From Steroidobacteraceae bacterium (lineage in GTDB: Bacteria > Pseudomonadota > Gammaproteobacteria > Steroidobacterales > Steroidobacteraceae), in the NCBI GenBank assembly GCA_036824505.1, contig DAITAA010000007.1:6677-70676 (forward strand): a stretch of DNA of 64,000 bases, read 5' to 3'. Below the pieces are notes generated by a model. That model made no database searches, was not told the origin of the DNA, and saw nothing but the letters and a program-made list of their open reading frames with translations. Both the position numbers and the translations under genes were made by a program. Below are positions 7,910-50,576 of the stretch, piece after piece. Numbering within the stretch: position 1 is the stretch's first letter; every line of letters starts with the position of its first letter.

Positions 7910-7983
7910 GTGTATTGCGGCCGCAACTACCGCTGCCTAACATCATCGGAATCCGGGGACCGAATTCATCTAAGGGGGATCCA

Positions 7984-11963: not shown

Positions 11964-12049
11964 AAAACCCCGAAACCCCCGACCCGGCACCTGACTCACG
12001 GCACCTGACTCACCTCACCCCCGAAACCCCCGACCCGGCACCTGACTCA
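11964..12049 (+). repeat. G-rich repeat, two right-hand copies (inverted relative to the left copy) plus three copies of GGCACCTGACTCA
   Basis: CCCCGAAACCCCCGACCCGGCACC lies at 11968..11991 and CCCCCGAAACCCCCGACCCGGCACC at 12018..12042. The 13-mer GGCACCTGACTCA lies at 11986, 12000 and 12037. Confidence 0.9.
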
Positions 12050-14691: not shown

Positions 14692-14753
14692 GGTCAAAGT
14701 GCCTCCCGGCATGCGCGACAGTGAATCATCCGGCACACGACCCTTCAAGCCCC

Positions 14754-20241: not shown

Positions 20242-21441
20242 TCATGCCTCCAATACTCGCCGCGGCAGCAGGCGGGCCAGCAGTGCCGGAGCGCCCGTGG
20301 CACGCAGATGCGGATGATCCGCGAGAAAGCTGCGTCGCGCGCTCGCCGCCGTGTGCGACTCGTCGCCGGGCGCCCAGCCCGGCGGCATCACAAGGTAAGC
20401 GAGCCGCTCGCGCCAGCCGCGCGCGCTGCGCACGTCGCGCGCCAGCAACAGCAGCTCGCCGAAGTAGAAATCGACGAAGCTGGTGACATTGATGTCGCGC
20501 GTGATGCCGTATTCGATTTTCACTTCATCGCGCAGCGGCTGCAATGTGCCGAACATCCAATCCCAGAACGGCAGCAGCGTGCAGAAGTTGGTGTCCATGT
20601 AGAGCGGGTTGCGGGCGTGATGAACCCGATGGTAGGACGGCGTGATGATGAAATAGCGCGCCGGGCCGAAGCGGCCCGTGCGAAACGAGCGTTCACCGGC
20701 GTGGATGAAGGTTCCCCAGGTAACCTCGAAGGCCATGATCACGACCAGCATGGCAGGCTCAACGCCGAGCAGCATCAACAGCGGCGCCTGCACCAGCGCG
20801 GAGTAATAGCCTTCAGCGAAGAAGTGCACCCAGGCCACCGTCATGTTCAGATTCTGGGGAGCGTGGTGTGGTGAGTGCAGGCACCACAGCAGGCGCACCT
20901 TGTGCGCGCCGTAGTGCCAGATCCAGGTGGACAGCTCCCACATCAGCAGGGCATAGAGCCATCCGTACCAGTGGTAGCCGACTCGAAACAGTGCAAATGG
21001 CTGGAAGTAAGGCAACAGCAACCAGAACACATCGATGACGATCAGCCGCGGCAGCAGGCCGAGCAGCAGTCCGGTAAAAAAGGTGGGCTGGTATTCGAGC
21101 GCCGTCGCCCGAAACAGCCGCGCCGCCATGCCCGGGCCGCGCCCCTGGGCGCGCTCCTCGCGGGCCAGCACGATGAGGAAACGCAACAACTCCCACAACG
21201 TGAGCAGTGAAATCAGCAGTCCCACCACTGCCAGCACACTGTCGTGGTAATGCCCGTCATTGAAAGGCTTGAGCAGGTCGGTGATGAAACCCTGGCCCGC
21301 TGCCGTCGTTTGCGCATAGTGCACGAGGCCGGCGGCGAGACCCCAGGTGGTGTAGACGAACACGCCGGCGAATAGCAATGCTTCGAGATGCCGCCATAAC
21401 GGCGGCGTGTGGCGCCACGCCGGAACATCACGCTGTGTCAT
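20242..21441 (-). CDS. Fatty acid hydroxylase / sterol desaturase family membrane di-iron oxygenase
   Basis: 399 aa and polytopic. Three His boxes: HYGAH, HSPHH, HRVHH. ATGA overlap with the upstream GH16 stop. Confidence 0.8.
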   Translation of the reverse strand: MTQRDVPAWRHTPPLWRHLEALLFAGVFVYTTWGLAAGLVHYAQTTAAGQGFITDLLKPFNDGHYHDSVLAVVGLLISLLTLWELLRFLIVLAREERAQGRGPGMAARLFRATALEYQPTFFTGLLLGLLPRLIVIDVFWLLLPYFQPFALFRVGYHWYGWLYALLMWELSTWIWHYGAHKVRLLWCLHSPHHAPQNLNMTVAWVHFFAEGYYSALVQAPLLMLLGVEPAMLVVIMAFEVTWGTFIHAGERSFRTGRFGPARYFIITPSYHRVHHARNPLYMDTNFCTLLPFWDWMFGTLQPLRDEVKIEYGITRDINVTSFVDFYFGELLLLARDVRSARGWRERLAYLVMPPGWAPGDESHTAASARRSFLADHPHLRATGAPALLARLLPRRVLEA

Positions 21442-22775
21442 CTGATGCGCGCGAATTCGACCGCGTCGATGTGGACCGCTCCCGACTCGTCAAAGACCTG
21501 GCCGAAGGCCAGCGACAGCCGGGCCTCGACCGCTCCGGCCGGGGCCACCGCTTCCAGTTCGTAGTCGTGCCAGGCATCGGTCGGCGTCGTCCCGTCGGCA
21601 ATCGCCCGCTCCTGGAATCCGAGCATTGCCGGGCCGCCGAAGTAGTCGCCCCAGTGGTTGTAGAACTCAATCTTCATCGTGGCGTGGTCTTGTGAGCCGG
21701 CCAGATCCTCTGCCGAACGCACGAACGCCGAGAGCCTGGCACGAACCCGCTCGCCGCCGGCGACGCTGATGCTTTGAGTCACGCCGGAATAATTTACCTC
21801 GCCAATCGCCTGACCGGAAATCTTCAATGCGTAAGTGCCATCGCGCACCACCTGCCGATGCACGAGCACATTCGGTTTGTCGTCGATGCGATTGCCGAAG
21901 ATGTGCCAGCCGGCCAGCGAGCCGCCGTGCTCGTCGAAACCGCCGTTGCGAAACGTGCGGCTGCCCGGTTCGTCGGTGAGCTCGTAGACGCGGACCCAAT
22001 CCACGAGCATTCGCTGCGGCCAGGCCGTCGTTTCGTTCGGCGGCGGCAGGAAGTCGCCGCCGATCGCCGTATCGATGATCAGTCGCATCGGCACGGTGAG
22101 TTTCGGCAGGAAGTATCCGACTTCGTCGTTGTAGAAAGTGCCGTGGTGGATGTCATCCACGTAGAACCGGAGCTGGTTCTCGACCCATTCGCAGGCGAAC
22201 GTGTGAAATCCGTCGGCGTAAGCGACGAGTTGGTCGGCGATCGCCGCTTGATGCTCGACCGCGAACGAATCCTGCGAAGCGGGATCATGCGTCGCCCAGC
22301 GGAATGCGCTCGACACGACCGTGGGCCGATCGCCGCGATGCTCCAGGATGTCGATCTCGCCCGCGGTCGGCCGCGGTGCGTCGGGCAGCAGCCGGATCGC
22401 GGGCCACAAGCCCCTCGAACCGGGCAGCCGGGCTCGCACTTCCCAGCGGCCGAACCGCTGTGCGCGCCGGCTGACGATCCGGCCCGAGCGATAAGGCAGG
22501 GCGCGCGACGGCTCGTTCTCGGACAGGATCTCCAGCTTGCCGTCCATGACGCGGATCTGTTCCGGCCGATAGTCCTGCAGCGAGGTATTCGTCGGCCGGC
22601 TGTCGTCGATCACATCCCATTTGTCGCGATCGAGCGTGTCGAAGTTGTCGCTCCACGCCAGGTGCCACTTGGGCGGCGGAACAACGACCGACTCCGCTTC
22701 ATCCGCGCCGATCGCCTGCGCCGCGCCCCACAGCAGCAGGCCAAGGGAGGCAAGGCCGGAACATGATCGCGCCAT
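21438..22775 (-). CDS. Secreted GH16 glucanase with C-terminal CBM4/9-like module
   Basis: 445 aa with a signal peptide. W.D.FD.LD..KW, catalytic EIDILE, then ..FRNGGFDEHGGSLAGWHIFGN.. typical of CBM_4_9. Confidence 0.8.
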   Translation of the reverse strand: MARSCSGLASLGLLLWGAAQAIGADEAESVVVPPPKWHLAWSDNFDTLDRDKWDVIDDSRPTNTSLQDYRPEQIRVMDGKLEILSENEPSRALPYRSGRIVSRRAQRFGRWEVRARLPGSRGLWPAIRLLPDAPRPTAGEIDILEHRGDRPTVVSSAFRWATHDPASQDSFAVEHQAAIADQLVAYADGFHTFACEWVENQLRFYVDDIHHGTFYNDEVGYFLPKLTVPMRLIIDTAIGGDFLPPPNETTAWPQRMLVDWVRVYELTDEPGSRTFRNGGFDEHGGSLAGWHIFGNRIDDKPNVLVHRQVVRDGTYALKISGQAIGEVNYSGVTQSISVAGGERVRARLSAFVRSAEDLAGSQDHATMKIEFYNHWGDYFGGPAMLGFQERAIADGTTPTDAWHDYELEAVAPAGAVEARLSLAFGQVFDESGAVHIDAVEFARIR

Positions 22776-25276
22776 CAGCGCCAGCGCACCACGATTTCCG
22801 GCGCATCGTCGATTTCGAGCGTCGCCTGCGGCTTCATCGGCTCCATCTGCCGCAGGCGCTCGAGGTACTGCTTGTCGTAATAGACGTCGCTCAGGGCTTC
22901 CAGAGGATCGAGCATGCGAACGACGCGCGATTGCACGGCAGCCGCCACCCCATTGACGGTCGCCCCGGTGACCGCATCGAAGCCATGCAGGATCACCTGG
23001 ATCCTGCGAAACGGCGAGGAATAGTTTCCGTCAGGGCGCGAGAAGCTGAGCTGCCTCGTGGCCGGATCGAACGCGATGAGCCGCCTGCGGAATTGCCCCT
23101 TGCGGTAGTCCAGCGTTTCACCGTCATCGTCGTAGTAAACGAATTCGCTCCGCTCGGCGCCGTTGAACAGGTGCACGGTGAGCACCGGTCCGGGATCGTC
23201 CCGGGTCGATTGCACCTTTCGCTGCATGGGAATGATTGCGGAAGCCTTCGCGAAGATCGGGATCCTGTGGCCCGCATACTCCGAGCGGATGACGCGACCG
23301 CCATCGAGCCGTTCGTCGGTGAAGAGATCAAACCATTGCCCGGCGGGCAGGTACGTGGACTTCTCCTGCTCCTTGCTGGTCATGGGATTCACCAGGAGCC
23401 CCGGACCGAACAGAAATTCGTACTGAAAGTCCGGCTTGAATACGTTGGCGTCGAAGGAATGGTCGATGCTCAAGCTGCGGCTCACGGGCATGCCGGTCTG
23501 AGTGGCTTCGTAGAACGCCGAATAGAGATAAGGCATCAGTTGGTACCGGAATCCGATATAGGCCTTCGAAATCGCCTCGACTTCCTCGCCGTAGGCCCAG
23601 GGCTCGTTGGCGGCGGTGAACTGCCCGCGATGATTGCGCAGATACGGGGCGAAGACGCCGACTTCGACCCAGCGACGGAACAGGTCCTTGTTGCCATCGC
23701 CGATATAGCCGCCGAGGTCGGGACCGGTGAACGGCACGCCGGACAATCCCATCTGGTTGACGAGCAGGGCGCCGAGCAGGATGTGCTCGTCCTTGGCCTG
23801 ATTGTCGCCGCTCCACACCGCGGCGTAGCGCTGGATGCCTGCGAATCCCGAACGGCTTAGAACGAAGGGTCGCCGGTTGCCGCCATATTGCTCGGCCGAT
23901 TCGAACGCGGCGCGCGCCATCAGCATGCCGTAGTAGTTCTGCGCTTCGAGCGCCGAGGTCTTCTGGCCGTCGAAATTGAACACCACGTTGTCCGGCATGG
24001 CCTGGCCGTCGATTGCAGGTTCGTTCATGTCGTTCCACAAGCCGTGGATCCCGAGATCCTGGTAAAGCTTCATATTGTCGATCCACCAGCGCCGCCCGCG
24101 CGGATCGGAAAAATCCACGAAGTGATTGGTGTTGGGCGCGATGTCCGCGACCCACAGCTCGCCGTCAGCGTAGCGCAGGAACACGTTCTCCTTCAGACCG
24201 CTCTTGTATTGTTCGTACGTGTCGTCGATGGCAATGCCGGGATTGACCGAGGCAGTGAGTTCGACGTTCATGCCGCGCAGGGTATCGGCGAGGCGCCGCA
24301 TGTCCGGGAAGCGCTCGCGATTGATGCGAAACGGCTGGTATCGGTGCAGGTAGTCGGCATCGAGTGTGATTCCGTCCAGAGGAATCCGCTTGGCGCGAAA
24401 TGTGTTGGCGATGAACATCACCTGTTCTTCCGGATAGTAGCTGCAGCGCGACTGCTGATAGCCGAGGCTCCAGCGCGGCGGCAGCGGCATCCTTCCGGTG
24501 AGCGAGGTGTAGTGCTCCAGGATCTTGCTAACCGACGCATCGAAAATGAAGAACTGGTCCAGAGAGCCGCCGTCGAAGCTAAAGGACGCGAAGCGGCGAT
24601 TGGACGCGCCGAAGTTGAATACGGATCGAAAGGAATTGTTGAAGAAGAGTCCATAGGCCTTGCCGTCATGCAGCCCCATGAAAAACGGAATGCTCACGTA
24701 CATCGGAACCTTGGGATCGTCGTACCGATAGTTGTCCGTGTTCTTGAGCGTAAGAACGGTCCCGCGCCGGTCGAGATTGCCGAGCTGCTCGCCCATGCCG
24801 ATGAAGCGCTCGTCGCTCTGCAGCCGCTTGTACACGGTGATCTTGTCGCCGACGAGCGTCATGCCGAGCTCTTTGCCGGGCAGATCCTCGTTGATGACGT
24901 TGCCGTTTGCATCCTTGAACGTGATGCGCAGGTCGGGGCGTAGCTCCACCTCGGCCGCGATGCTCAAAGTCTTGAGCACGACGACGGGGCCGGCGGCGCT
25001 GACGCTGAACTGCGAAAAATCGGGCGGCTCGTCCGTGGTCAGGGCATAGCCGACGTGTCGCGGCGACCCCAGAGGCGTCACGCGCACCCGGATAATGTGA
25101 GGTGAATACGCATCGACTGAGAATTCGGCCATGGCGGTTCGCCCGGCGATGCCGTGCGCAGTTTTCTCATACGACTGCACGGCGCCAAGATTGGCGGCGC
25201 GCGCTGCGGGAGCGAGGCTGCCCAGCATCAGAAGGCTGACGCTGGCCACCCGGATGAACGCTCGAATTGCCGTCAT
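22775..25276 (-). CDS. GH31 alpha-glucosidase (or alpha-xylosidase-type), secreted
   Basis: 833 aa with a signal peptide. The GH31 nucleophile block is GLWNDMNEP and the acid/base region is RSGFAGIQRYAAVWSGDN. Confidence 0.85.
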   Translation of the reverse strand: MTAIRAFIRVASVSLLMLGSLAPAARAANLGAVQSYEKTAHGIAGRTAMAEFSVDAYSPHIIRVRVTPLGSPRHVGYALTTDEPPDFSQFSVSAAGPVVVLKTLSIAAEVELRPDLRITFKDANGNVINEDLPGKELGMTLVGDKITVYKRLQSDERFIGMGEQLGNLDRRGTVLTLKNTDNYRYDDPKVPMYVSIPFFMGLHDGKAYGLFFNNSFRSVFNFGASNRRFASFSFDGGSLDQFFIFDASVSKILEHYTSLTGRMPLPPRWSLGYQQSRCSYYPEEQVMFIANTFRAKRIPLDGITLDADYLHRYQPFRINRERFPDMRRLADTLRGMNVELTASVNPGIAIDDTYEQYKSGLKENVFLRYADGELWVADIAPNTNHFVDFSDPRGRRWWIDNMKLYQDLGIHGLWNDMNEPAIDGQAMPDNVVFNFDGQKTSALEAQNYYGMLMARAAFESAEQYGGNRRPFVLSRSGFAGIQRYAAVWSGDNQAKDEHILLGALLVNQMGLSGVPFTGPDLGGYIGDGNKDLFRRWVEVGVFAPYLRNHRGQFTAANEPWAYGEEVEAISKAYIGFRYQLMPYLYSAFYEATQTGMPVSRSLSIDHSFDANVFKPDFQYEFLFGPGLLVNPMTSKEQEKSTYLPAGQWFDLFTDERLDGGRVIRSEYAGHRIPIFAKASAIIPMQRKVQSTRDDPGPVLTVHLFNGAERSEFVYYDDDGETLDYRKGQFRRRLIAFDPATRQLSFSRPDGNYSSPFRRIQVILHGFDAVTGATVNGVAAAVQSRVVRMLDPLEALSDVYYDKQYLERLRQMEPMKPQATLEIDDAPEIVVRWR

Positions 25277-25848
25277 TTCCGCTCGCCGCCGCGGAAGGTC
25301 ATTCGCTGCAGCGTCGGCACACGGTCAAACCACTGGTGCTTGAACGCGCCAATCAGGTGCGCCGCGAGCAGGGCGTAAAACAGGTAGCTCAGCCATTCGT
25401 GCACGGTGTGGGCCAACTCGTCGAGCGCCTTTTTCGGCTCCGGCGCCATGTTTGCCACCCAGGCGATCCGCGGCATCTCGAAGAGCCCGAAAACGTTGAT
25501 CGGGACATCGGCAGCATATTCCCACGCCGAATCGTAGATCCACCCCGAGAGCGGCATCGCCAGGATCATGAAATACAGGGCGGCATGGCCTGTGCGCGCG
25601 GCGACGACCTGCCAACGGGGTATCGCCGGGCTGAACGGAGGAGGGCGATGCCCGATCCGCCACAGGAGCCTCATCAGCGCGAGACCCAGCACCGTAATGC
25701 CGAAGGTCTTGTGCGTGTCGGTGACGGATTGCGTCCACGAGTAATCCGGCCAAATCTTGAACGTCCATGCCAGGACCATATTGGCGATGACCAGGACGGC
25801 AATGACCCAGTGGAAAATAATCGCCGTTCGCGTGTAGCGATCGCTCAC
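25273..25848 (-). CDS. Cytochrome b561 family (CybB-like) membrane di-heme protein
   Basis: GTG start at 25848 (VSDRYTRTAIIFHWVIAVLV...), overlapping the PhyH stop as GTGA. It has four TM segments with conserved His (HW.., H.T.G, H..LY, H....HL). The 407-aa ORF in the track is an out-of-gene extension. Confidence 0.75.
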   Translation of the reverse strand: MSDRYTRTAIIFHWVIAVLVIANMVLAWTFKIWPDYSWTQSVTDTHKTFGITVLGLALMRLLWRIGHRPPPFSPAIPRWQVVAARTGHAALYFMILAMPLSGWIYDSAWEYAADVPINVFGLFEMPRIAWVANMAPEPKKALDELAHTVHEWLSYLFYALLAAHLIGAFKHQWFDRVPTLQRMTFRGGERK

Positions 25849-26684
25849 CGCGGCAGATTCCGCGCAGTCGTGTCGCGCTCTTCGGCAAGCCAGACGTCGC
25901 TCGCCTCGTCGCCGATGAAGCGCCGCGATCCGTACTCGCGAATGCGGCTGTCCGGAACCTTGACGAGCGGCGTATAGCGAGGATGCTGCGATTCCTTGTA
26001 AGGGTCGTTGCGCGCGGCGTTGTAGCTGCAGATCATCGACCAGCGCGGGTGCTTCGACTTGTTCTGATCCGACCGGTGTAGCGTATTGCAATGGAAGAAG
26101 AGGACGTCGCCCGGTTCCATGTCGACGTGCACGAGCTCCAGGCGCTTGAGGACTTCCTTCACTCGTTCCATATCCGCGCCGGCCTGTTCGCCGGTGAGGG
26201 CGTGATCGAGACGACCCAGCTGATGCGAGCCGCGCACCACCTGCAGACAGCCGTTCTCGCGCGTGGCGCGGTCGACCGCGATGAAGGCGCTGGCCATCCA
26301 CGGATTGAGGACGCCGTTGTGATACCAGTAGCCGTAGTCCTGGTGCCAGGTCCACGCGCCTCCGATCAGCGGGTCTTTCATGATCATCTTCGAGTGATAG
26401 TGGTAGACCTCGCCGCCCAGGAGTTTTTCCATTGAGCCGACGATCGACTCCGAGCGCGCGATCATGCCGTAGATCGTGTCGGTAGGATGGTTCCACAGTG
26501 ACAGGCGCACTGTACCGCCTTCGCCGTCCGCCCGGCCGAAGGAATGCTGGTCGAGCACGCGGTCGGCGCGCGCCGCGCGCCCGAGCAGGTCGACCTCGAC
26601 GGCGTCGAGCATGCCGCGTACCAGCACAAAGCCGTCAGCGTTGAACGCGCCGACTTCCGCATCGCCGATCGGTCCCCTGGCCAT
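25845..26684 (-). CDS. Phytanoyl-CoA dioxygenase (PhyH) family Fe(II)/2-oxoglutarate oxygenase
   Basis: 279 aa. WHQDYGYW (HxD), ATRENGCLQVVRGSH, and FFHCNTLHRS (distal His). A GAGGAGAAG RBS lies upstream. Confidence 0.8.
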   Translation of the reverse strand: MARGPIGDAEVGAFNADGFVLVRGMLDAVEVDLLGRAARADRVLDQHSFGRADGEGGTVRLSLWNHPTDTIYGMIARSESIVGSMEKLLGGEVYHYHSKMIMKDPLIGGAWTWHQDYGYWYHNGVLNPWMASAFIAVDRATRENGCLQVVRGSHQLGRLDHALTGEQAGADMERVKEVLKRLELVHVDMEPGDVLFFHCNTLHRSDQNKSKHPRWSMICSYNAARNDPYKESQHPRYTPLVKVPDSRIREYGSRRFIGDEASDVWLAEERDTTARNLPR

Positions 26685-26699
26685 TGGCTTCTCCTCGCC

Positions 26700-28058
26700 T
26701 CAGATCCGTGTCTGGCGGCGCAGCGTCCGCGCCGGCACCGGCGTTTCCGACCAGTACTTCTCGATCTCCTCCAGCGTCCGGTTCCTGGTTTCCGGCACGT
26801 ACTTCCAGGTAAATAGCGCCTGCGCCAGCGAAAACGCGGCCAGGATCGCGAAAGTCGGCGCCTGCCCCAGCCGATGCAATGCCGCGGGGAACAACAGGAC
26901 CACCACGGCGTTCGCCACCCACTGTGTCAGCACCGGCACGATCATCGCCGTGCCGCGGATGCGGGTCGGCAGGATTTCCGGCACCAGCGTCCAGAATACC
27001 GGACCGATGCACGAGCAGAAGAAAATCAGATATCCAAGGATCAGGATGAGAGCCAATGGACCCTTGAAATGTCCGAGCAACACGGCGATGGTCAGCGCGG
27101 AGAGCATCGCGGCCATCCCCAGCGATCCGACGATGTACAAAGGGCGGCGGCCGTAGCGATCGATCGTCCAGAAGGCCACCAGTGTGAACGCGAAGTTGGT
27201 GAGGCCCACGACGAACGTCGAAAGCAGGGCCGCATCCATCTGCCATCCCGCCGACAGGAAGATGACGGGCGCATAGTCGATGACGGTATTGATGCCGGAG
27301 AAGTGAATCAGAATGGCGAGCCAGAAGCCGACGAACACCGCGCGGCGCACGCCCGGCTGGAAAACTTCCCTCCACGAGTGATGGGTGGTCGCCGGCGCCG
27401 AAGCGCTGGCCAGTGAAACCTCGTACTGCGAGTCTCCGAGTTTCTCCATGACGGCGCGCGCCACGTCGGGGCGTCCTGCCATGAAGAGGAACCGCGGCGT
27501 CTCGGGGGCACGCAACAACAATCCGAAAAAAATCACGGACGGGATCACGCCCGTGCCGAACATCCAGCGCCAGTTGTCCGGACCGATGTCGTGCAGCAGA
27601 TAGTTGATGCAATAGGACACCAGAATGCCCGTGACGATGGACATCTGATAGAGCGCGCCCAACCTCCCGCGCACGGCCGCTGGTGCGACTTCCGCGATGT
27701 ACATCGGCGAGACCAGCGACACTCCACCAACGGCGAGGCCACCGATGAATCGCGCGGCGAGAAAGCTCGGAAAATCCCAGGCAATGGCCGTCGCGACCGA
27801 GGTCAACGCGAACAGCATTGCAATCCACAGCAGAACGTAACGGCGGCCGTAGCGATCGCTCAATCGACCGGCAATGGCGGCACCGATAGCGCAGCCGAAC
27901 AGCAGCGAGCTGAACGCCACCCCCAACCCAAAATCACCGAGCTCGAAATGCCGGGCCAGAAACGGGCCCGCGCCGCTGATGATGGCCACGTCGAATCCAA
28001 ACAGCAGGCCACCGGTTGCGGCTGTGCAGGCGAGAAACAGGACGTAGCGGAGGTTCAT
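26700..28058 (-). CDS. MFS sugar porter family transporter
   Basis: 452 aa with 12 TM segments. [18 protein letters not shown] and [12 protein letters not shown] are sugar-porter signatures. Confidence 0.85.
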
Positions 28059-31908: not shown

Positions 31909-34135
31909 CGCGAATGTCGACCTCCTGCACCAGGGGCAGTATCCGCGACGATGCGCCGACGTGCATACGATAGCGCCCGGCAGGGTGGCGCCACTCGCTT
32001 GCGCTCGTGTCCCAGACTCGAAGAGCGTAGGGATCCGCTGCGATCCGAACGCGACGCCGCTCGCCGGGCGCCAGCTCCACGCGAACCCAGCCCGCCAGCC
32101 GCTTCGCGGGTTCGCCGGCCGCCGGCGGAAACTCAACATACAACTGCGCGACTTCCACGCCCGCGCGCTTTCCGGTGTTGGTCAGGTCGAAAGTCACCGA
32201 GAGATCCGGATCCACCGCGAGGTTCGCATACGCGAAGGTCGTGTAGGAGAGCCCGAAGCCGAACTCGTATGCCGGGACCTTGTTTCGCGAGACGTACCAT
32301 CGGTAGCCGACCGCCAGCCCTTCGTCCAGCGCGACGACCGGGGATCGCGCCGGAACAGAATCAGGCTTCATGGGGTCGGCCTGCGGCTCGGGCGGGTAGG
32401 GGCGCGGCAGGTCCGCCTCGGCGCGCGGAAAGCTGATCGGCAGCCGGCCGGAGGGATCGACGCGGCCGAACAGGATGGCGGCGATCGCCTCCGCGCCGCG
32501 ATTGCCCGGATACCAGGCTTCGAGGATGGCGCCAGCCTGCGCCGCCCAGGGCGTCAGCACCGCACCGCCGGTCTGCAGGACGACGACGGTCCGGGGATTG
32601 GCGGCCGCTACTTTCCGGATCAGCTCGTCCTGACCGGCCGGCAGCGACAGGTTGGAAAGGTCCTTGCCTTCCGTGCGTGCCTGCCAGGCGAAGACGATTG
32701 CCACGTCGGCGGATGCCGCGAGGCGCGCTGCCGCCTCGACATCTTCACCGGATGCGAACGTCACATCCGCCGAGGGCGACTCGGCTTCGATCGCCGTCAC
32801 CGGCGACGAGTGATGCCAGACGGTGCTGGCGAACTGGACCAGCTCGGCCGCGGTGCCGGGCGGCGTATCGTCGATCGTGACGCCGCCGATCGACTCGACG
32901 CAGGACGAGCCGCCGCCGGCCAGCACGCCCACATCGGCGCGACGGCCGATCACTGCGATCTTTCCGGCGGAATCCGCCCGCAGCGGCAGCAGACCGTCGC
33001 GGTTCTGGAGGAGGACGATGCCGCTTTCGGCCACTCGCCGCGCGACGGCGAGTCCGGCTGTCGTATCGACGGGCCTCACGGCCTCCTGCCGGTCCAGTGC
33101 ACCGACCGAGGCGAGGCCGCGCAGGATGCGGCGGGCCATGTCGTTGACGCGCGATTCGGAGACCTCTCCTTTCTCCACTGCTGTCTTCAGCGCGCCCGCG
33201 AAGTAGCGCTCCTGGTAGAACTCCTGGTCGAGTCCGGCTTGCGCCGACTGCACGGTGCTGTGGGTTGCGCCCCAGTCGGACATGACCCAGCCCTTGAAGC
33301 CCCATTCGGTTTTCAGGATGCCGTCGAGGAGCCGGGCGTTCTCGCAGGCGTAGACGCCGTTCACCTTGTTGTAGGCGCACATGACGCTGCCGGCGCCCGA
33401 TTCCTTCACGGCGATCTCGAACGGCAAGAGGTCGATCTCGCGCAGCGCCCGCTCGTCGACGACCATGTCGACGGTATGGCGGTTCGTCTCCTGCGTGTTG
33501 GCGACGAGGTGCTTGACGGTGGATACGACGCCCTGCGACTGGATGCCGCGCAGCTGCGCCGTCACCAGGCGCCCTGCCAGGACCGGGTCTTCGCCCAGGT
33601 ACTCGAAGTTGCGGCCGTTCCAGGCGTCGCGCTCGACGTTGGCGCCGCCGGCGAGCAGCACGTTGAACCCGCGGTCGCGGGCCTCGCGGCCCATGATTCG
33701 CCCGCTTTCGAACGCGAGCTCCGGGTCGAAGCTCGCGGCCAGTGCCTGCGCGGAAGGGAAGGCCGTCGCGCGGCCGTCCGCACCGCCGGAGATGTTCCTC
33801 ACGCCGAGGGGTCCGTCGTTCAGCTGCAGCGCGGGGATGCCGAGGCGCGGCAGCGGCGCGATGAAGCCGGCTCCGCCTCCCGCTCCGGCCGGCGTCGGCT
33901 GCCCCGCGTAGGCAAACCCGAGCGGTCCGTGGAGCAGGTGAATCTTCTCGTCCAGCGTCATCTGCCGGACGAGCGCCAGGGCGCGCTGGTCCGGGTCCGG
34001 GCTCTCGTCACGCGGGACCTCACTTGCCTGCACGGTCAGGACCATCGCAGCGGAAACAGCCAGGCCGCCTGCGACGCAGAGGAGGTACGGGGCCGCACCG
34101 GCCCAGCGCCTGGGCGCATGGCCGGCGGGACCCAT
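31892..34135 (-). CDS. GH3 beta-glucosidase, secreted/periplasmic
   Basis: 747 aa. MTLDEKI..L, GFKGWVMSDWGA (GH3 nucleophile block SDW), and a C-terminal Fn3-like domain (FGFGLSYTTF). Confidence 0.85.
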   Translation of the reverse strand: MGPAGHAPRRWAGAAPYLLCVAGGLAVSAAMVLTVQASEVPRDESPDPDQRALALVRQMTLDEKIHLLHGPLGFAYAGQPTPAGAGGGAGFIAPLPRLGIPALQLNDGPLGVRNISGGADGRATAFPSAQALAASFDPELAFESGRIMGREARDRGFNVLLAGGANVERDAWNGRNFEYLGEDPVLAGRLVTAQLRGIQSQGVVSTVKHLVANTQETNRHTVDMVVDERALREIDLLPFEIAVKESGAGSVMCAYNKVNGVYACENARLLDGILKTEWGFKGWVMSDWGATHSTVQSAQAGLDQEFYQERYFAGALKTAVEKGEVSESRVNDMARRILRGLASVGALDRQEAVRPVDTTAGLAVARRVAESGIVLLQNRDGLLPLRADSAGKIAVIGRRADVGVLAGGGSSCVESIGGVTIDDTPPGTAAELVQFASTVWHHSSPVTAIEAESPSADVTFASGEDVEAAARLAASADVAIVFAWQARTEGKDLSNLSLPAGQDELIRKVAAANPRTVVVLQTGGAVLTPWAAQAGAILEAWYPGNRGAEAIAAILFGRVDPSGRLPISFPRAEADLPRPYPPEPQADPMKPDSVPARSPVVALDEGLAVGYRWYVSRNKVPAYEFGFGLSYTTFAYANLAVDPDLSVTFDLTNTGKRAGVEVAQLYVEFPPAAGEPAKRLAGWVRVELAPGERRRVRIAADPYALRVWDTSASEWRHPAGRYRMHVGASSRILPLVQEVDIRDVQVN

Positions 34136-34172
34136 CGCTCAGCTGCGGAACTTCATGTCGGCGCGTACCCCG

Positions 34173-37100
34173 CTACCACTTGAAGTTCAGGCTCAGCTTG
34201 AAGGTGCGCGGCACGCCCGAGATGTCCCCGTCCTTGAAGTAGTCCGGCGGCCCTGGGAACGTGTTGATGAACTGGACGTAGTTCTTGTGATTCGTGACAT
34301 TGAGCGCGTCGAGGCGGACCTGGATCGCCGACCCGTTGCCGAACTCGAATGACTTCGTCAGCTGCAGGTCGAGCGCCATGTAGCCGATGTCGTCCTTCGG
34401 AAACTGCGAGAGCTTGAAGTAGTTGTAGTTGAGGCCGTTCGGCGGATCGGTTCGTCCGGGCGAGGTGCCGATGCCGTTGAACCCGGTGTTCGCTTTTGGC
34501 GATTCGATGACGAACTTGGCTCCCCCCAGCATTCCCCAGGGCAAGTCCATGGTGCCGATCGCGACCAGGCGGTTCTTCGCAACCTGGTCCGAGAGCACGT
34601 ACAGCGAGTAGTACGGAGAGGCGTATTGGAACTGGTAGTCGCCGGGAAAGTCGCGAACCTTGGCCCACGTGTACGTGTACGCAATGCTTGCGGACCAGGG
34701 CGATTCACTGCTGTAGGGTTTGTCGGCGGAGATCAGGAGCTGCGTGCTCCGGGTCGCCTCGGCGTTGTCGAAGAGGTAAAGCCCGCCGCCGCCGGCGTTC
34801 GGGACTGGTGCTTGAAAGGCGGCGTAATCAAACGTGTCATACCAGTACCAGGTTCCGTCACCAAAGCGGTTACCGTTGCTTGCGATCACGCCTTTGTAGC
34901 TCTTGATGTATGCCAATGCGACGCTCGTGTTCCAGTCAGCCACCCGGTTGCGCATGCCGAGCGTGAACTGGTCGGAATAGGGAGTCTCGAGATTGTTGTT
35001 GATGAAGTGCATCTCGCCGAAGTTGCCCGGGGCGATTGACGCCAGCCCTTCCGGCGTCAGGTAGGCGTCGTTCCACTCGATGCACTGGGGGCTGGCGTCC
35101 ACCGGGCCTTCGCAGCCCGGATTGTTCGCGTTCCAGAACTGGGTCGTCGGTGTGTACAGCGTCGCCTTGTTGCTCTCGAGCTGCAGGATGCTGAACGTAT
35201 TGCGGTCGTAGCTGCGGGCGGCGCCGCCGAAGATCACGTGCGCCTGGTCGGCGAAGAGGTCGTAGGAAAAGCCGAACCGCGGCGCGATCTGGTCCGTGGG
35301 ATTGCTGCGATTGTGGCCGTTGCTGATGTAGTCGTTGATGTCGATGCCGCCATTAGCCAGCGATTCGGCGTACGTCTGGCCGGGTACGTGGCAACTGGGG
35401 GTGTTGACGGGGCAGGCGTTGGTATCGAGGGCGAAGATCGCGTCCACGAAGCGCTGCGGCGTGACGTAATCCGTGTACGTCGGCGTCTCTTCGTAGTCGT
35501 AACGCACGCCGATGTTCAGCACCAGCTTGTCGTTGACCACCCAGTCGTCCTGGAGGTAGATGCCGTATTGCTTGTTCTTCGAGATCGCGGTCGCGTTGAT
35601 GGTGGGGTCAGCCTGTGCGCCGAAGAGCACCTCGAAGGGATCCGCCTCGACGCCATTGTCGGGGATGGCGGGATCGACAAAGAACGTATAGAGCGCTTCG
35701 GTCGAGGCATCGCTCATCTGCAGCTCGACGTCCTTGAACTTGACGCCCGTCTTGATCGTGTGCTCGCCATGCCAGCTGAAGTCGGTGAACGTGATGTCGT
35801 CCTGGAGGGAGTAGCCGCTCTGTGCCGCGAAGAAGTAACCCAGGGGGTCGACGCCGTCGACCTGCAGGATGATGTCGAAACCCGTGCCCCGGGTCCCCAG
35901 GGCCCGGTACCTCTTGCCCGGCTCGCTGCCCGCCTTCGACGGTGAGTCCTCCGTGTCCTCGTAGGTGACGGTCGCTTCGTTGAAATAGCGCTCGCCGGAG
36001 TGCTCCCAGCGCAGCGCCAGTCGCTTGTCGTCGTTGACGTAGGTCGTCGCCGCGGACTCGGCAACCACGCCGGCGGCGCCGGTCTGCTGCCGCTCCTCGC
36101 GGGACTTGGCCGACAGCTCGAGGCGATCGGAGTAGCCGAGTTCCCAGTCCAGCTTGACGAAGATCAGATCCTCGTCGAACGGATTCGCCACCGGGCCGTA
36201 GTTCTCCCGAAGCTCCGGCGTCAGCGCGCCAACCCAGTCGAGCGCGACGTTGTTGTCGTCGACCAGATTCTGCGGCGCCTGCACGGTGTTGGGTGTCGTG
36301 AAATCCTTGCGCTCGTATGTGACGAAAAAGTGCATCTTGTCCTTGATGATCGGACCGCCGAGCGAAAAGCCGTACTCCTGGCTGTCGCCGCCCTCCTTGC
36401 CAGTACCGGCGAACTCCTCGGCCGGGGTCTTCTCCCGCAGGCTTGCGTCCGTATACGTCATGAACGCGGAGGCCTCGAATTCGTTCGTTCCCGACTTGGT
36501 GACGGCCGTGATCGCAGCGCCGGAGACCTGGTCGTACTCGGCCTTGTAGTTCGACGTGATGACTTTATATTCGGCGATCGCGAGCTGCGGGAAAGGGTTG
36601 CCGGAGGAGCCCACCGTACTCTGGTTCGCACCAGACCTCGGGTTGGAATCGACGCCGGCTTGCCCGCTCGCTCCGCTCGGACGCACGTAGTTCTTCTGCC
36701 CGACGCCGTCGATGTAGACGTTGGTGGTACCCGTATTGAGGGCGCCGCTGCGGATCTGGTTTCTGCCCTTGGCGTCTACCGAAAACTGCATGCCGGGCAC
36801 TGCGTCGGCGAACTCGAGGAAGTTGCGCGTGATCTGGGGCGAAACCTCGATCTGGCGCAGCGAGATGCCGCTGCCGACTTCCGAAGTCCTGACCTCGCGC
36901 AGTCTTGCGCCGCTGACTCTCACTTCGCCGAGTGCGGTGGCCTGCGCCGCATCGAAATCCAGTGTGGCGGTGGAGGCGACGCCGAGGCTGACAACGTACT
37001 CGCTGCCTCCGCCCGTGACCCGGTAGGTGCCGGGCGGCAGGCCGACGAGCACGTAGTTGCCGTCGCTGCCCGACTGGACGCTGCGAGTCAGTCCGGTCTC

Positions 37101-37274
37101 GGTGTTGGTTGCCTTGACTTCAGTGCTGGCTGGCGCCTTGCCGCGCAGGGCCGCGCTCGCCGACTGTGCCGCGGCTTGTTGCGGAAGTGCGCTCGACAGC
37201 AGGATCGCACTGATCGCCGTCGCAAGGCGCCAATCACGCCGGGCCGCCGTCTTCATCTTTGTGCTAGTGTTCAT
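34173..37274 (-). CDS. TonB-dependent receptor, Oar-like (N-terminal carboxypeptidase-regulatory-like domain)
   Basis: ATG at 37274 is preceded by AAGGGA. Signal peptide ..LPQQAAAQS, then TGLTRSVQSGSDGNYVLVGLPPGTYRV (CarboxypepD_reg), a long barrel and a terminal ..LSLNFKW. Confidence 0.85.
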   Translation of the reverse strand: MNTSTKMKTAARRDWRLATAISAILLSSALPQQAAAQSASAALRGKAPASTEVKATNTETGLTRSVQSGSDGNYVLVGLPPGTYRVTGGGSEYVVSLGVASTATLDFDAAQATALGEVRVSGARLREVRTSEVGSGISLRQIEVSPQITRNFLEFADAVPGMQFSVDAKGRNQIRSGALNTGTTNVYIDGVGQKNYVRPSGASGQAGVDSNPRSGANQSTVGSSGNPFPQLAIAEYKVITSNYKAEYDQVSGAAITAVTKSGTNEFEASAFMTYTDASLREKTPAEEFAGTGKEGGDSQEYGFSLGGPIIKDKMHFFVTYERKDFTTPNTVQAPQNLVDDNNVALDWVGALTPELRENYGPVANPFDEDLIFVKLDWELGYSDRLELSAKSREERQQTGAAGVVAESAATTYVNDDKRLALRWEHSGERYFNEATVTYEDTEDSPSKAGSEPGKRYRALGTRGTGFDIILQVDGVDPLGYFFAAQSGYSLQDDITFTDFSWHGEHTIKTGVKFKDVELQMSDASTEALYTFFVDPAIPDNGVEADPFEVLFGAQADPTINATAISKNKQYGIYLQDDWVVNDKLVLNIGVRYDYEETPTYTDYVTPQRFVDAIFALDTNACPVNTPSCHVPGQTYAESLANGGIDINDYISNGHNRSNPTDQIAPRFGFSYDLFADQAHVIFGGAARSYDRNTFSILQLESNKATLYTPTTQFWNANNPGCEGPVDASPQCIEWNDAYLTPEGLASIAPGNFGEMHFINNNLETPYSDQFTLGMRNRVADWNTSVALAYIKSYKGVIASNGNRFGDGTWYWYDTFDYAAFQAPVPNAGGGGLYLFDNAEATRSTQLLISADKPYSSESPWSASIAYTYTWAKVRDFPGDYQFQYASPYYSLYVLSDQVAKNRLVAIGTMDLPWGMLGGAKFVIESPKANTGFNGIGTSPGRTDPPNGLNYNYFKLSQFPKDDIGYMALDLQLTKSFEFGNGSAIQVRLDALNVTNHKNYVQFINTFPGPPDYFKDGDISGVPRTFKLSLNFKW

Positions 37275-37338
37275 GAAATTTCCCTTGCTCGTTGATTCCT
37301 GCAGCGCCGCCCTACGCCGGCGCAGCCCCAAGTCCACG

Positions 37339-38295
37339 TCACCGAACCGTCGAGCCCTCGACGGCGCTCAAAGCCGCACCGATCATTCCGCCGCGCGCGC
37401 CGAGGCGCGCGCGGCGCACGCGCACGCGTCGTGCGTATCGCCCCCAGGTGAACCTCGGAAGCGCGGCGCGAAAACTGTTCCAGTACCGACCGGGAGCCGC
37501 GCCCACGCCGCCGCCCAGGACGACCAGCGACGGGTCCAGTGCATTGACCAGGATCGCGACGTGGGCGGCGAGGTCGGTCGCGGCGGAATCGACCACGCGG
37601 CGAGCGATGCCCGATTGCGCGCGCGCTGCGCGGCAAACTTCCGCCGCGTCCCCGGCGTGATAGCCCAGGGCCTTTGCACGGCTAACCAATGCCGGTCCCG
37701 ACGCGCGGGATTCGAGTGGGGCGAAAACCGTTCTGCCATCGCTGGCCGTAGCCGCGCATGTCGGGCCGCTCGCGAACGCGATGGCGTGACCATGCGCGCC
37801 GAGATAAGGCCGGCCATCGATGAACAAGGTCGAGCTGATGCCCGTGCCGACGCCGACATAGAGGAAGTTGGGACTGCCGCGCGCCGCCCCGAGGCGCGCT
37901 TCGGCGAGCGCCGCTGCCCGCACGTCGGATTCGATGGTCACCTCGCCATAAGCAGCGAACACCCTGCGGACGCCGGCAGAACGCCACGACAGGATGGCGG
38001 CGCTCTCGATCTCGCCTCCGGGGCCGACCAGCTCGGGTACGCCGATTCCAACTTTGTGCACCGTCAATCCGGCGCGGCTGCCGGCTTCGACGACTTCGCG
38101 CGCAACCGCCGCCGCGCGTGCGAGCGCCTGGCGTGCGCCGTTCGTCGCGTCCGTGTGGATCGCGCGGACGTGCCGCAGCGACCCGGAGCGTGGAACGAAG
38201 AGGCCGGCGCGAATGCTGGTTCCGCCGACGTCGATGCCGAGCACGCACCGCTGGCGCTGACGCATCCGCGTCGAGCGGCGCGCGGCGCGGCTCAC
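37339..38295 (-). CDS. ROK family sugar kinase
   Basis: VLGIDVGGTSIRAGL, and later GVGTGI..... with ROK-like Gly-rich blocks. The GTG at 38295 overlaps the bicupin stop (GTGA); ATG 38265 is an alternative start. Confidence 0.75.
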   Translation of the reverse strand: MSRAARRSTRMRQRQRCVLGIDVGGTSIRAGLFVPRSGSLRHVRAIHTDATNGARQALARAAAVAREVVEAGSRAGLTVHKVGIGVPELVGPGGEIESAAILSWRSAGVRRVFAAYGEVTIESDVRAAALAEARLGAARGSPNFLYVGVGTGISSTLFIDGRPYLGAHGHAIAFASGPTCAATASDGRTVFAPLESRASGPALVSRAKALGYHAGDAAEVCRAARAQSGIARRVVDSAATDLAAHVAILVNALDPSLVVLGGGVGAAPGRYWNSFRAALPRFTWGRYARRVRVRRARLGARGGMIGAALSAVEGSTVR

Positions 38296-39137
38296 GGCAG
38301 GTACCTCGGCGCGACGCCGAGCAAGGCGGTAGCGGATCCGGAGAACGACAGGATTTCGTATTGCGCGGTCTCGGGAATGAACACGGCATCGCGCGGGCCG
38401 AGCTCCATCGTTGCAACCTGGGACTTCCAGTACGTGCGGATCATCAGCTCGCCTGACAGGCCAACGATCATCGCATCGCCGCCGTGCGCGGTTCTCTCGC
38501 CAGCGGCTCCCGCCGGCACGTTCAGCTCCGCAACAGTGAGATGCTCGGTGCTGACGATCAGGCCGACGGCGATTTCGCCCTCCAGCCGCAGCGAGCGCTC
38601 ACGCGCCCCGATTCGATGCAGGGTCGCAGGCGGAGCCGCGCCGACGTAATTGCCGAGTAACTCGTCGCGCTTATAGACCGGCGTTTCCAGGTATTCCTGA
38701 TTCATCGCGTAGGCACCGCTCGTGCCCTGCGATGGGGGCGGTGCGAAGAATTCAAGTATACGCAGCGGCTCGGCGCCCTGCGCTCGCACGTGGTGCCAGG
38801 TGTCCTTGCGAAAGAACAAGGATTCGCCGGCCAGGCATTCGACGACCTCTCCAGTCTGCGGATTGCAGGCGAGCATCGCACCCTGCAACACGTAGAGGAC
38901 TTCGTCCGCGGCAAACACGGTTCGGTACGCCCTCGAATGCTTGAACCAGCATCCGGGAGCCAATCTGAACTCGAGAACGTGAACCTTGTTGGTGGAAGCG
39001 TACAACCAGTCGCCCACCAGGCCGGACTGCTTGTCGCCCCAGATGTGGTGCTTGATGTCGCTGCGACGAACGAGCGTAGGAGCATCGTAGGTCGGTCGCG
39101 GCGAGGGCGCGTATCCCGTTGAAGCACTATCGGCCAA
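38292..39137 (-). CDS. Bicupin-fold protein of unknown function
   Basis: There are two cupin-like halves (..VLEFRLAPGCWF.HS.....DEVLYVLQG... and ..VAELNVPAGAAGERTAHGGDAMIVGLSGEL..). The start is uncertain: TTG 39137 (GGCGGA upstream) or ATG 39233. The 39138..39233 stretch has atypical third-position usage and contains the 10-bp repeat array. Confidence 0.55.
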   Translation of the reverse strand: MADSASTGYAPSPRPTYDAPTLVRRSDIKHHIWGDKQSGLVGDWLYASTNKVHVLEFRLAPGCWFKHSRAYRTVFAADEVLYVLQGAMLACNPQTGEVVECLAGESLFFRKDTWHHVRAQGAEPLRILEFFAPPPSQGTSGAYAMNQEYLETPVYKRDELLGNYVGAAPPATLHRIGARERSLRLEGEIAVGLIVSTEHLTVAELNVPAGAAGERTAHGGDAMIVGLSGELMIRTYWKSQVATMELGPRDAVFIPETAQYEILSFSGSATALLGVAPRYLP

Positions 39138-39215
39138 TGCCCATCCGCCTTCTTCGAGGTGGTGATTCGACGACCAGGGCTCTGGCCCGGAATATAGGCG
39201 AGCCCTCGCGCCCTT

Positions 39216-39255
39216 GCAACCAGTAGCAACCATTGGGAACCAGTCGGAACCAGGG
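39216..39255. promoter_or_regulatory. Four tandem 10-bp repeats G(C/G)AACCAnnn (candidate operator array)
   Basis: GCAACCAGTA GCAACCATTG GGAACCAGTC GGAACCAGGG are contiguous, in the bicupin/GntR divergent region. Confidence 0.4.
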
Positions 39256-39405
39256 TCGATGGCGCGGCAGTCGCGCAGGCGAGGCGACGCGGGTACAGCG
39301 GTTTACAGCGCAGTTTGGGCGCGTTGCGCCCGTATGGCGTTGCCTCGTCGCAGGACACTCGGTAATCTGCGCGGGCGGACGCAGGCGGCGATGCTGCACC
39401 GCAAG

Positions 39406-39425
39406 ACAACCAAAGGCAACCAAGG
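39406..39425. promoter_or_regulatory. Two more tandem 10-bp repeats (ACAACCAAAG GCAACCAAGG)
   Basis: Same core (C)AACCA at the same 10-bp period, ending 13 nt upstream of the GntR start codon. Confidence 0.35.
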
Positions 39426-44018: not shown

Positions 44019-44052
44019 ATCGAAGGCCTCTCCGTCAAGGACACTGTCACAC

Positions 44053-45156: not shown

Positions 45157-45171
45157 GGATCGAGCACAACG

Positions 45172-46272: not shown

Positions 46273-46328
46273 ATGCAGGGCTTTCACGTGATGAGCGCGG
46301 TTCACCAACTGGAACGGGTGAGACTCAA

Positions 46329-50420: not shown

Positions 50421-50511
50421 GCCTGGCCCCGTTCCGCCTCGCGCATTGGCCGCAGCGCGTCGGCGGGCGGCCAGGCACAATTGTCGGCCGAATCGCGGGC
50501 GTACCGACCAC

Positions 50512-50525
50512 TGAATACGATTGCA
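50512..50525. promoter_or_regulatory. Candidate LacI-type operator TGAATACGATTGCA (central CG, weaker symmetry)
   Basis: It lies in the divergent region between the GH13 alpha-glucosidase and the MFS/amylase operon. It matches the 14754 site at 12/14 positions. Confidence 0.3.
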
Positions 50526-50576
50526 TCGCGTTGTGCGGCTCGCCGGCCGGCGTGAGACTCGCAAGCAGGGGGGAAC

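Follow-up and report, generated by a model that had tools for sequence, protein, structure and literature searches.

A conserved TonB-receptor gene string in a Steroidobacteraceae bacterium: a probable operon for beta-1,2-glucan catabolism with porter-linked and GH144/GH31-linked oxygenase genes

The DNA analysed is a 64,000-nt stretch from a Steroidobacteraceae bacterium (the window), and the subject is a string of genes in it that combines a TonB-dependent receptor and glycoside hydrolases (GHs) with oxygenase, cytochrome, cupin and sulfotransferase genes. Listing and translation of open reading frames (ORFs) placed twelve co-directional genes on the minus strand at 20242-39233, from a bicupin to a di-iron hydroxylase, as had been described in an earlier reading of this DNA (the original prediction). 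The families assigned to all twelve products were recovered by Pfam, but the "CBM" placed on the GH16 enzyme was not: the C-terminal 176 aa of that protein matched no Pfam family and no PDB sequence. The bicupin kept its family, but its start was moved to TTG 39137. The genes are as follows.

38292..39137, minus strand: bicupin (Cupin_2), 281 aa with the revised TTG start, predicted cytoplasmic
37339..38295, minus strand: ROK-family sugar kinase (PF00480)
34173..37274, minus strand: Oar-type TonB-dependent outer-membrane receptor (TBDR; CarboxypepD_reg, OMP_b-brl_4 and TonB_dep_Rec_b-barrel domains)
31892..34135, minus strand: GH3 beta-glucosidase-like enzyme (GH3 N, C and Fn3-like Pfam domains)
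30307..31908, minus strand: tetratricopeptide repeat protein with a sulfotransferase domain of the 3'-phosphoadenosine-5'-phosphosulfate (PAPS) type (TPR-ST; TPR and Sulfotransfer_3), predicted cytoplasmic
28055..30310, minus strand: PF10091 protein, BDI_3064-type GH144 (PF10091; alignment with 5z06)
26700..28058, minus strand: importer of the major facilitator superfamily (MFS), sugar-porter family (Sugar_tr 359 bits; TIGR00879 349 bits, above cut-off)
25845..26684, minus strand: PhyH-family Fe(II)/2-oxoglutarate dioxygenase (PF05721), predicted cytoplasmic
25273..25848, minus strand: cytochrome b561, CybB-like di-haem membrane protein (PF01292, Ni_hydr_CYTB)
22775..25276, minus strand: GH31 alpha-glucosidase-like enzyme with a signal-peptide-like N-terminus (GH31 Pfam)
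21438..22775, minus strand: GH16 laminarinase-like enzyme with a 176-aa C-terminal part (GH16 Pfam)
20242..21441, minus strand: membrane di-iron oxygenase of the fatty-acid-hydroxylase superfamily (FAH; PF04116, FA_hydroxylase)

A script reading start and stop codons reproduced each junction, gap and overlap that had been reported. Overlaps of 4 nt (ATGA or GTGA) join bicupin and ROK (38292-38295), TPR-ST and PF10091 (30307-30310), PF10091 and MFS (28055-28058), PhyH and b561 (25845-25848), b561 and GH31 (25273-25276), and GH16 and FAH (21438-21441). GH31 and GH16 overlap by 1 nt (TGATG at 22775) and GH3 and TPR-ST by 17 nt. The intergenic gaps are 37 nt (TBDR/GH3), 15 nt (MFS/PhyH) and 64 nt (ROK/TBDR), the last presuming a TBDR start at ATG 37274, from which the receptor has 1033 aa (orthologues, 1034-1043 aa). 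Among the other same-strand neighbours in the window, 10 of 13 pairs also overlap, by 4-14 nt, and the overlapping pairs include genes of unrelated function (CN_hydrolase/RNase_T and RNase_T/RlmL-type methyltransferase). Tight gene overlap in the string is the background rate of this genome and is not exceptional.

Relatives of the string were collected by scanning species-representative genomes with a GH144 alignment, which gave 80 loci, and synteny was examined by tblastn with the window proteins; two further contigs were added by exact-protein look-up. The nearest homologues are in Steroidobacteraceae metagenome-assembled genomes (MAGs). A GntR gene followed divergently by bicupin-ROK-TBDR-GH3-TPR-ST-GH144-MFS-PhyH-b561-GH31 was found in L002, L081 and L082, and partly in L001. 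The gene order is beyond chance, since it recurs in independent assemblies, and it is not unique to this strain. What these contigs show directly is the order of the genes, their families, their conservation and which modules are present or absent. TPR-ST is present in five of the nine syntenic contigs (the window, L001, L002, L081 and L082) and absent from L003-L006; L005 is without GH3, TPR-ST and b561, and L006 is without these and ROK. No GH16 or FAH gene follows GH31 in L082, L002, L003, L005 or L006. L004, L081, L095 and L116 have a GH97-GH16 ORF behind GH31, with FAH next, and GH97(-GH16)-FAH stands apart from the GH144 string, convergent with an ATP-binding cassette (ABC) operon, in L099, L103 and L109. 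Alignment with these relatives revealed that the window has lost ~1.9 kb holding GH97 and that the loss made the GH31/GH16 TGATG overlap, so a deletion scar accounts for at least one of the coupled junctions. In L081 (18250-21408), GH97 and GH16 are called as one 1052-aa ORF between GH31 and FAH. The signal-peptide-like segment of the window GH16 can be aligned inside this long ORF of the relatives, so their GH97-GH16 "fusion" may be two genes.

Collectively, this turnover suggests that the string consists of separable modules and is not one indivisible pathway. The notion of a single gene set survives in part: a conserved co-directional string lies behind a conserved promoter region, but TPR-ST, b561, GH3, ROK and GH16-FAH are each missing in some close relatives. 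The further step from interleaving and overlaps to stoichiometric co-expression on a shared substrate is not supported, because overlaps are generic here and the GH31/GH16 overlap is the product of a deletion.

The region upstream of the string holds the following features.

39191..39253, minus strand: promoter-like -35 TTGCAA / -10 TATATT with four CTGGTTSC repeats of 10-bp period
39403..39423, minus strand: second TGGTTG repeat pair, 10-bp period, at the GntR end of the intergenic region
39439..40212, plus strand: GntR/UTRA regulator of the HutC type, divergent from the string and first gene of an ABC sugar operon

TTG 39137 is the most likely start of the bicupin, because all bicupin orthologues have the 281 aa that this start gives, the purine-rich GAAGGCGGA lies just 5' of the TTG, and the -35/-10 pair at 39219-39191, upstream of it, falls within the longer bicupin ORF assumed earlier. 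The four CTGGTTSC repeats (39216-39253) overlap the -35 element. Matches to the repeat number 12 in the window, compared with 3.3 expected, and 3 of the 12 are in the promoter region. Seven related contigs (L002-L006, L081 and L082) keep the hexamers, the CAGATTACCGAG block and three or four clear copies of the repeats next to the promoter, L006 having GAGATTACCGAG in place of the CAGATTACCGAG block. The second TGGTTG repeats form a tandem pair in five of the seven; in L002 and L082 they consist of one exact TGGTT and a TGGTC variant. The conservation of repeats, hexamers and block across these contigs supports one real promoter with an operator array upstream of the string, the operator probably being for GntR. 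The regulator is divergent from the bicupin in all syntenic contigs, at 84-96% identity, and its gene overlaps the next gene of the ABC sugar operon (operon part 40203..48674). Terminator-like sites within the string (12) are not above the shuffle expectation (12.8).

The substrate of the string is suggested most directly by its PF10091 protein. Residues 39-743 of this protein (Pfam score 213 bits) aligned with chain residues 6-700 of BDI_3064 (PDB 5z06) at E 1.8e-206, end to end across the PF10091 catalytic domain and the long N-terminal extension that define the BDI_3064 type of GH144. By this alignment it is a full-length homologue of the BDI_3064 sophorohydrolase, for which sophorose release is predicted, and this points to the core of the string as a TonB-receptor beta-1,2-glucan utilisation locus. 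The GH3 enzyme is nearest to beta-glucosidases, GH16 to laminarinases and GH31 to alpha-glucosidases (MalA-type 430 bits versus YihQ-type 153 bits). By eye, the translations of GH144, GH3, GH31 and GH16 have signal-peptide-like N-termini, and those of the bicupin, ROK kinase, sulfotransferase and PhyH are without one. The TBDR is kept in all syntenic contigs. The locus thus has the co-localised and conserved receptor, secreted GHs, inner-membrane sugar transporter and regulator of a TonB-dependent carbohydrate-utilisation locus. Related loci hold endo-type PF10091 genes, GH3 and MdoG/GH186. Two other pathways were considered and rejected. A sulfoquinovose route, with a GH31 sulfoquinovosidase and a dioxygenase, does not agree with a GH31 that is MalA-type with a signal-peptide-like N-terminus (by eye) or with a dioxygenase of the PhyH family, SqoD being a TauD enzyme. 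An inositol-type pathway (IolB-like cupin, IolG, IolT) was discarded since Pfam gave no hit to KduI/IolB and the kinase does not belong to the type required.

The inner-membrane porter is closely tied to the dioxygenase gene behind it. PhyH (PF05721, 124.5 bits) has H114-x-D116, H203 and R214 invariant in 20 orthologues, giving the HxD...H facial triad of the family and the 2-oxoglutarate Arg ~11 residues past the distal His. The orthologues are 72-94% identical across Steroidobacteraceae and Acidobacteria; the AF2 model made from this shallow alignment was unusable (pLDDT 50.7). PhyH directly follows the orthologous sugar-porter MFS in all close relatives, and among orthologues the MFS always adjoins PhyH. 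MFS-PhyH was also found in L011/L088, L017, L020, L022, L023, L052 and L179-181 (there with GH144 and GH3) and, beside glucokinase and GH125, in L182. PhyH with the orthologous MFS, often with a BDI_3064-type GH144, occurs in Gammaproteobacteria and Acidobacteria, and PhyH beside other sugar porters in Bacteroidota and Alteromonadaceae, the adjoining porters ranging from 95% down to 29-39% identity. Distant homologues (41-50% identity) in three cultured organisms are found in the orders GH36-PhyH-sugar porter (Spirosoma) and DUF1080-GFO-TIM barrel-PhyH-TIM barrel (Runella), and as porter|PhyH beside sulfatases, GH16 and GH2 (Catenovulum); an acidobacterial contig has PhyH-TIM barrel-sugar porter. 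PhyH orthologues without a porter are in L083, L084, L014/L089 and L016. PhyH is thus a companion of sugar importers in general rather than of decorated glucans in particular, and MFS-PhyH(-b561) appears to be a widespread importer-linked cassette, the porter-PhyH pair being found in three phyla. The most likely role of PhyH in it is to oxidise the sugar brought in, or to remove a substituent from that sugar through hydroxylation. In the original prediction PhyH was among the genes that raised the possibility of a decorated glucan; since it accompanies the porter beside GH36, GH16/sulfatase and GH125 partners too, it is no specific pointer to such a substrate. PhyH could not be assigned as the ectoine hydroxylase EctD (TIGR02408, 72.5 bits versus a 336.5 cut-off).

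Cytochrome b561 (PF01292, 108 bits, four-helix di-haem family; 54.5 bits for the CybB equivalog PRK11513, versus a cut-off of 170) follows PhyH in close relatives. At 49% identity it recurs in L088 as Sugar_tr-PhyH-b561, beside three PF10091 genes, a TBDR and MdoG. The gammaproteobacterial GH144 loci of L088 (14941-19482) and L089 (12297-17765) also contain a TBDR with genes of the Trp_halogenase family and 2OG-FeII_Oxy_5 behind it; these are a further case of redox genes that recur, unexplained, with such receptors.

A second PhyH gene lies in the ABC operon that begins with the GntR gene.

40203..48674, plus strand: sister operon with a substrate-binding protein, two permeases, the second PhyH, a GFO/IDH/MocA oxidoreductase (GFO), a MalK-like ATPase and a secreted GH3
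43254-44018, plus strand: second PhyH
44053-45156, plus strand: GFO/IDH/MocA oxidoreductase
46329-48674, plus strand: secreted GH3 of the sister operon

This PhyH is 27% identical to the first and stands between the ABC permeases and GFO, with the ATPase and the secreted GH3 after GFO. The sister operon is conserved in L005, L006, L099, L103 and L109. A GFO homologue is directly upstream of the MFS-PhyH-GH144 string in L017, L020, L022 and L023, and in L017 and L020 it stands before the ROK gene of that string. The window therefore has two sugar-uptake systems, each with its own PhyH dioxygenase. The best solved matches of the ABC substrate-binding protein were weak and were chitin-oligosaccharide binders (E 3e-19); no known beta-1,2-glucooligosaccharide binder was named among its structure hits.

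The bicupin and the ROK kinase behave as a pair. The AF2 model of the bicupin (pLDDT 90.5) has two barrels, in keeping with two tandem cupin domains, and Foldseek returned generic bicupins only (probability 1.0, TM 0.6-0.7, 9-15% identity), which does not justify reading it as a quercetinase or oxalate decarboxylase. The kinase is below every NCBIfam equivalog cut-off and is a ROK family member only; assignment as a ROK glucokinase was rejected (TIGR00744, 94.9 bits versus 260). Bicupin and ROK are found together in three further sugar loci, as ROK-cupin in L090, as SIS-ROK-MFS-HAD-cupin-EamA-GFO next to GntR in L092, and in an ABC sugar operon of Shinella (L178) with TIM barrel, ROK, GFO and cupin genes. 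This recurrence points to bicupin-ROK as a cytoplasmic sugar-processing pair.

TPR-ST (Sulfotransfer_3, 123 bits) contains PRSGTT and RDPRD, which we take to be the 5'-phosphosulfate loop and 3'-phosphate PAPS-binding motifs, and by domain and motifs it belongs to the PAPS-dependent sulfotransferases. The solved structures nearest to its catalytic domain are the protein-tyrosine sulfotransferases TPST1/2, and assignment as the carbohydrate sulfotransferase NoeE was rejected (50.9 bits versus 500). The best cultured homologue, from Azospirillum (40%), has acyl-CoA genes and an autotransporter around it and is outside a glycan context. We hypothesise that TPR-ST is an accessory insertion, probably a passenger and apparently a recent one, or else an enzyme with a protein target.

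FAH (PF04116, 85.6 bits) has the HxxxH, HxxHH and HxxHH boxes of the membrane di-iron superfamily in a polytopic membrane protein. The boxes (H176/H180, H189/H192/H193 and H271/H274/H275) are invariant and, with the C-terminal extension, are conserved from Gammaproteobacteria to contigs of 45% GC. FAH follows GH97 or GH97-GH16 in every close relative whose contig holds the upstream sequence. Two 45%-GC contigs (L112 and L113), which are Bacteroidota-like, have the order phosphodiesterase-GH144-FAH-(GH144)-GH31, with FAH at 52-53% and GH31 at 51% identity; the string of L113 runs on as GFO-GFO-SDR-ROK-SIS, and this contig carries a CHU_C type IX secretion domain. The phosphodiesterase would suit phospho-substituted periplasmic glucans. 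Another FAH homologue, at 46%, stands alone. These contexts suggest that GH97/GH16-FAH is an add-on unit and that FAH probably carries out a genuine step at the membrane, one tied to GH144/GH31 loci. FAH scored 44.6 bits for the ornithine-lipid hydroxylase OlsE, versus a cut-off of 475, and was not assigned to it. Two or three GH144 paralogues, a type I phosphodiesterase, FAH and GH31 occupy L112 3457-11298 and L113 327-20616, and L112 has a sulfatase and DUF2961 nearby. Of the non-CAZyme genes, then, PhyH and FAH are linked to glycan genes elsewhere and the bicupin recurs with ROK in other sugar loci, which supports the original prediction in part; the context of the nearest cultured TPR-ST homologue does not support it.

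Taken together, we propose, with a probability of about 0.6, that the string is an operon, controlled by GntR and dependent on its TonB receptor, for the catabolism of bacterial beta-1,2-glucans and related glucans, and that it is built of separable modules. The Oar-type receptor would bring beta-1,2-glucooligosaccharides or small cyclic glucans into the periplasm, where the secreted BDI_3064-type GH144 would release sophorose and GH3 would convert this to glucose. GH31 may act on alpha-linked glucose, a candidate being the single alpha-1,6 bond of Xanthomonas/Ralstonia-type cyclic glucans (alpha-1,6-cyclised beta-1,2-glucans occur naturally; PMC11842490), and GH16 may act on beta-1,3-linked glucans. 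The sugar-porter MFS would import the monosaccharide, a hexose, which ROK would phosphorylate and, with the bicupin, feed into metabolism. PhyH may hydroxylate the imported sugar or a substituent on it, with GFO, bicupin and ROK completing its processing, and FAH would perform a membrane step on part of the substrate. The substrates in this scheme are predicted from family homology, and the protein locations and the order of steps are likewise predictions.

Several observations weigh against this proposal. No endo-beta-1,2-glucanase is encoded in the window, and the opening of cyclic glucans is thus unexplained. The specificities of GH31 and GH16 are guesses from family membership, and the close comparators are all MAGs or metagenome contigs. 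In L083 and L084, the PhyH orthologues are away from any porter or GH144. The position of TPR-ST and both its overlapping junctions are kept in contigs whose GH144 is only 82-92% identical, which suggests that selection maintains it and that it is more than a pure passenger. A more integrated pathway would account equally well for the recurrence of FAH and PhyH beside GH144.

A more specific proposal, which we put forward only tentatively, is that PhyH (importer-linked) and FAH (GH144/GH31-linked) are signs of an oxidative step, not described so far, in the catabolism of glycans by bacteria. PhyH, at times with b561 and GFO/IDH/MocA, would remove an ether, ester or phospho substituent from the hexose or cleave the hexose oxidatively; the dehydrogenase, bicupin and ROK would return the product to central metabolism. 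The site of FAH action would be the membrane, and its target a lipid- or glycerol-linked portion of the glucan.

Less probable, in our view, is that a single decorated glucan or glycoconjugate, such as a substituted cyclic glucan or a sophoroside/glycolipid, is the substrate of all twelve products, with bicupin, TPR-ST, PhyH, b561 and FAH processing the decoration or aglycone and coupling enforcing their stoichiometry. Natural beta-1,2-glucans do bear succinyl, acetyl, phosphoglycerol and phosphoethanolamine substituents (PMC11842490), and the phosphodiesterase beside GH144 in the Bacteroidota-like loci suits phospho-substituted glucans. The full order including TPR-ST in L002, L081 and L082, and partly in L001, is consistent with a single pathway, as is the tie of FAH and PhyH to GH144 loci in distant lineages. 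However, each accessory gene is dispensable in some close relative, PhyH tracks the porter regardless of GH partner, and the overlaps are at the background rate, one of them being a deletion scar. A PAPS sulfotransferase, moreover, adds rather than removes a group; the domain here resembles protein-tyrosine sulfotransferases, and its homologue elsewhere is unlinked to glycan genes.

It is somewhat more doubtful still that the oxygenase, cytochrome and sulfotransferase genes are unrelated passengers on the transcript of an ordinary glucan operon, their recurrent neighbourhoods reflecting joint horizontal transfer. The gain and loss of accessory genes among close relatives, the overlap of unrelated genes in this genome and the PhyH and FAH orthologues that are found alone are what this explanation would predict. 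Hitch-hiking alone can hardly explain, however, the MFS-PhyH adjacency across Gammaproteobacteria, Acidobacteria and Bacteroidota with porters from 95% to 29-39% identity, the second, independent PhyH in an ABC sugar operon, or the FAH-GH31-GH144 linkage in organisms of 64% and 45% GC at ~50% protein identity. It is highly improbable that the locus serves to build or remodel a glucan of the periplasm or cell surface, through sulfation or hydroxylation for instance, instead of catabolising an external one: a sulfotransferase is present, the GH families involved include transglycosylating members and a related locus has MdoG and several GH144 genes, but the string has no glycosyltransferase, exporter or lipid-carrier gene. 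It has a TonB-dependent importer and a sugar importer together with exo-hydrolases, a kinase and a HutC-type repressor, and it lies in a catabolic glucan island, with GH13, GH97, glucokinase and ABC sugar systems around it.

The catabolic operon proposed here resembles the GH144 loci of Bacteroidota, known from the Chitinophaga pinensis endo-glucanase CpSGL (PDB 5gzh) and Parabacteroides distasonis BDI_3064 (PDB 5z06). The two share the BDI_3064 type of GH144, N-terminal extension included, a GH3 enzyme as partner and TonB-dependent import across the outer membrane, and endo-type PF10091 paralogues occur in loci related to that of the window. In contrast to the Bacteroidota loci, the present one is proteobacterial, its receptor is Oar-type without a SusD partner, no endo-GH144 is in the window, and MFS-PhyH-b561, bicupin-ROK, GH31, GH16, FAH and the sulfotransferase are added. 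Proteobacterial TonB-dependent carbohydrate-utilisation (CUT) loci were reportedly described in Xanthomonas by Blanvillain and colleagues in 2007. These loci likewise combine TBDR, secreted GHs, inner-membrane transporter and regulator, and unexplained redox genes are common beside such receptors (L088 and L089 here); the accessory set of the present locus (PhyH, b561, FA_hydroxylase, bicupin and TPR-sulfotransferase) sets it apart. A search of the open-access literature found no paper linking PhyH to CUT loci and nothing relevant tying it to sophorose, TonB-dependent loci or polysaccharide utilisation, and we found both the sugar porter-PhyH and the GH144/GH31-FAH links undescribed in the literature searched.

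Oxygenases within glycan loci do have precedents. Porphyran utilisation loci encode a cytochrome P450 that demethylates 6-O-methyl-D-galactose (PMC6292453, PMC10033563), removing a decoration from a monosaccharide-level product by hydroxylation, and the Catenovulum PhyH is beside the GH16, GH2 and sulfatase genes of an algal-galactan-like locus. PhyH is of another enzyme family with another cofactor (Fe/2-oxoglutarate versus haem-thiolate). SqoD is an Fe/2-oxoglutarate dioxygenase that acts directly on an imported sugar, after which an oxidoreductase regenerates glucose (PMC10507154, PMC12951627), and it too belongs to a GntR-regulated cluster with a transporter. In contrast to PhyH, SqoD belongs to the TauD family (PF02668), and the GH31 here differs by its MalA type and its N-terminus. 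The nearest solved PhyH-family enzymes, EctD and the leucine hydroxylase GriE, share the fold family and the metal and 2-oxoglutarate ligands, but the similarity is only E 1e-17 to 1e-22, and PhyH here is in a sugar-uptake context rather than in ectoine or amino-acid metabolism.

The main interest of the locus is in the recurrent porter-PhyH and GH144/GH31-FAH links, more than in the interleaving as such. Beta-1,2-glucans (cyclic, osmoregulated periplasmic) are symbiosis and virulence factors whose turnover in soil is poorly known beyond a few Bacteroidota and Listeria systems, and the locus, from a soil Steroidobacteraceae bacterium, would be a proteobacterial, TonB-receptor-based counterpart of these. 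If PhyH or FAH does act on a sugar-derived substrate, an oxygen-dependent step would be added to glycan catabolism, much like that of the P450 methyl-sugar demethylase or of SqoD. Both links are sufficiently specific to be tested in a cultured strain such as Rudaea cellulosilytica DSM 22992. In this strain (L016, NZ_KB899241.1), which is practical for experiments, the PhyH orthologue (71%) adjoins a BDI_3064-type GH144 (66%), with an endo-type PF10091 gene, ABC permeases and an Oar-type TBDR in the vicinity.

The window as a whole is a glucan island that also holds GH97, glucokinase, a second TBDR, GH13 enzymes, MFS, LacI, glucan phosphorylase, GlgB and GH57. Its alpha-glucan genes form two groups: GH97-glucokinase (4-nt overlap), divergent from the second TBDR, at 4816-10851, and GH13, MFS, GH13, LacI, glucan phosphorylase, GlgB and GH57 at 48726-62867. 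A 912-aa protein at 12010-14748 on the minus strand has a cyclomaltodextrinase-type GH13 (N, catalytic and C domains) and, C-terminal to it, a putative esterase domain. At 18585-20222 on the plus strand, a gene for a DUF4886 (SGNH-like) and GH16 protein converges on FAH. In L099, L103 and L109, the DUF4886-GH16 gene instead closes the ABC/PhyH2/GH3 operon; this region has thus undergone rearrangement.

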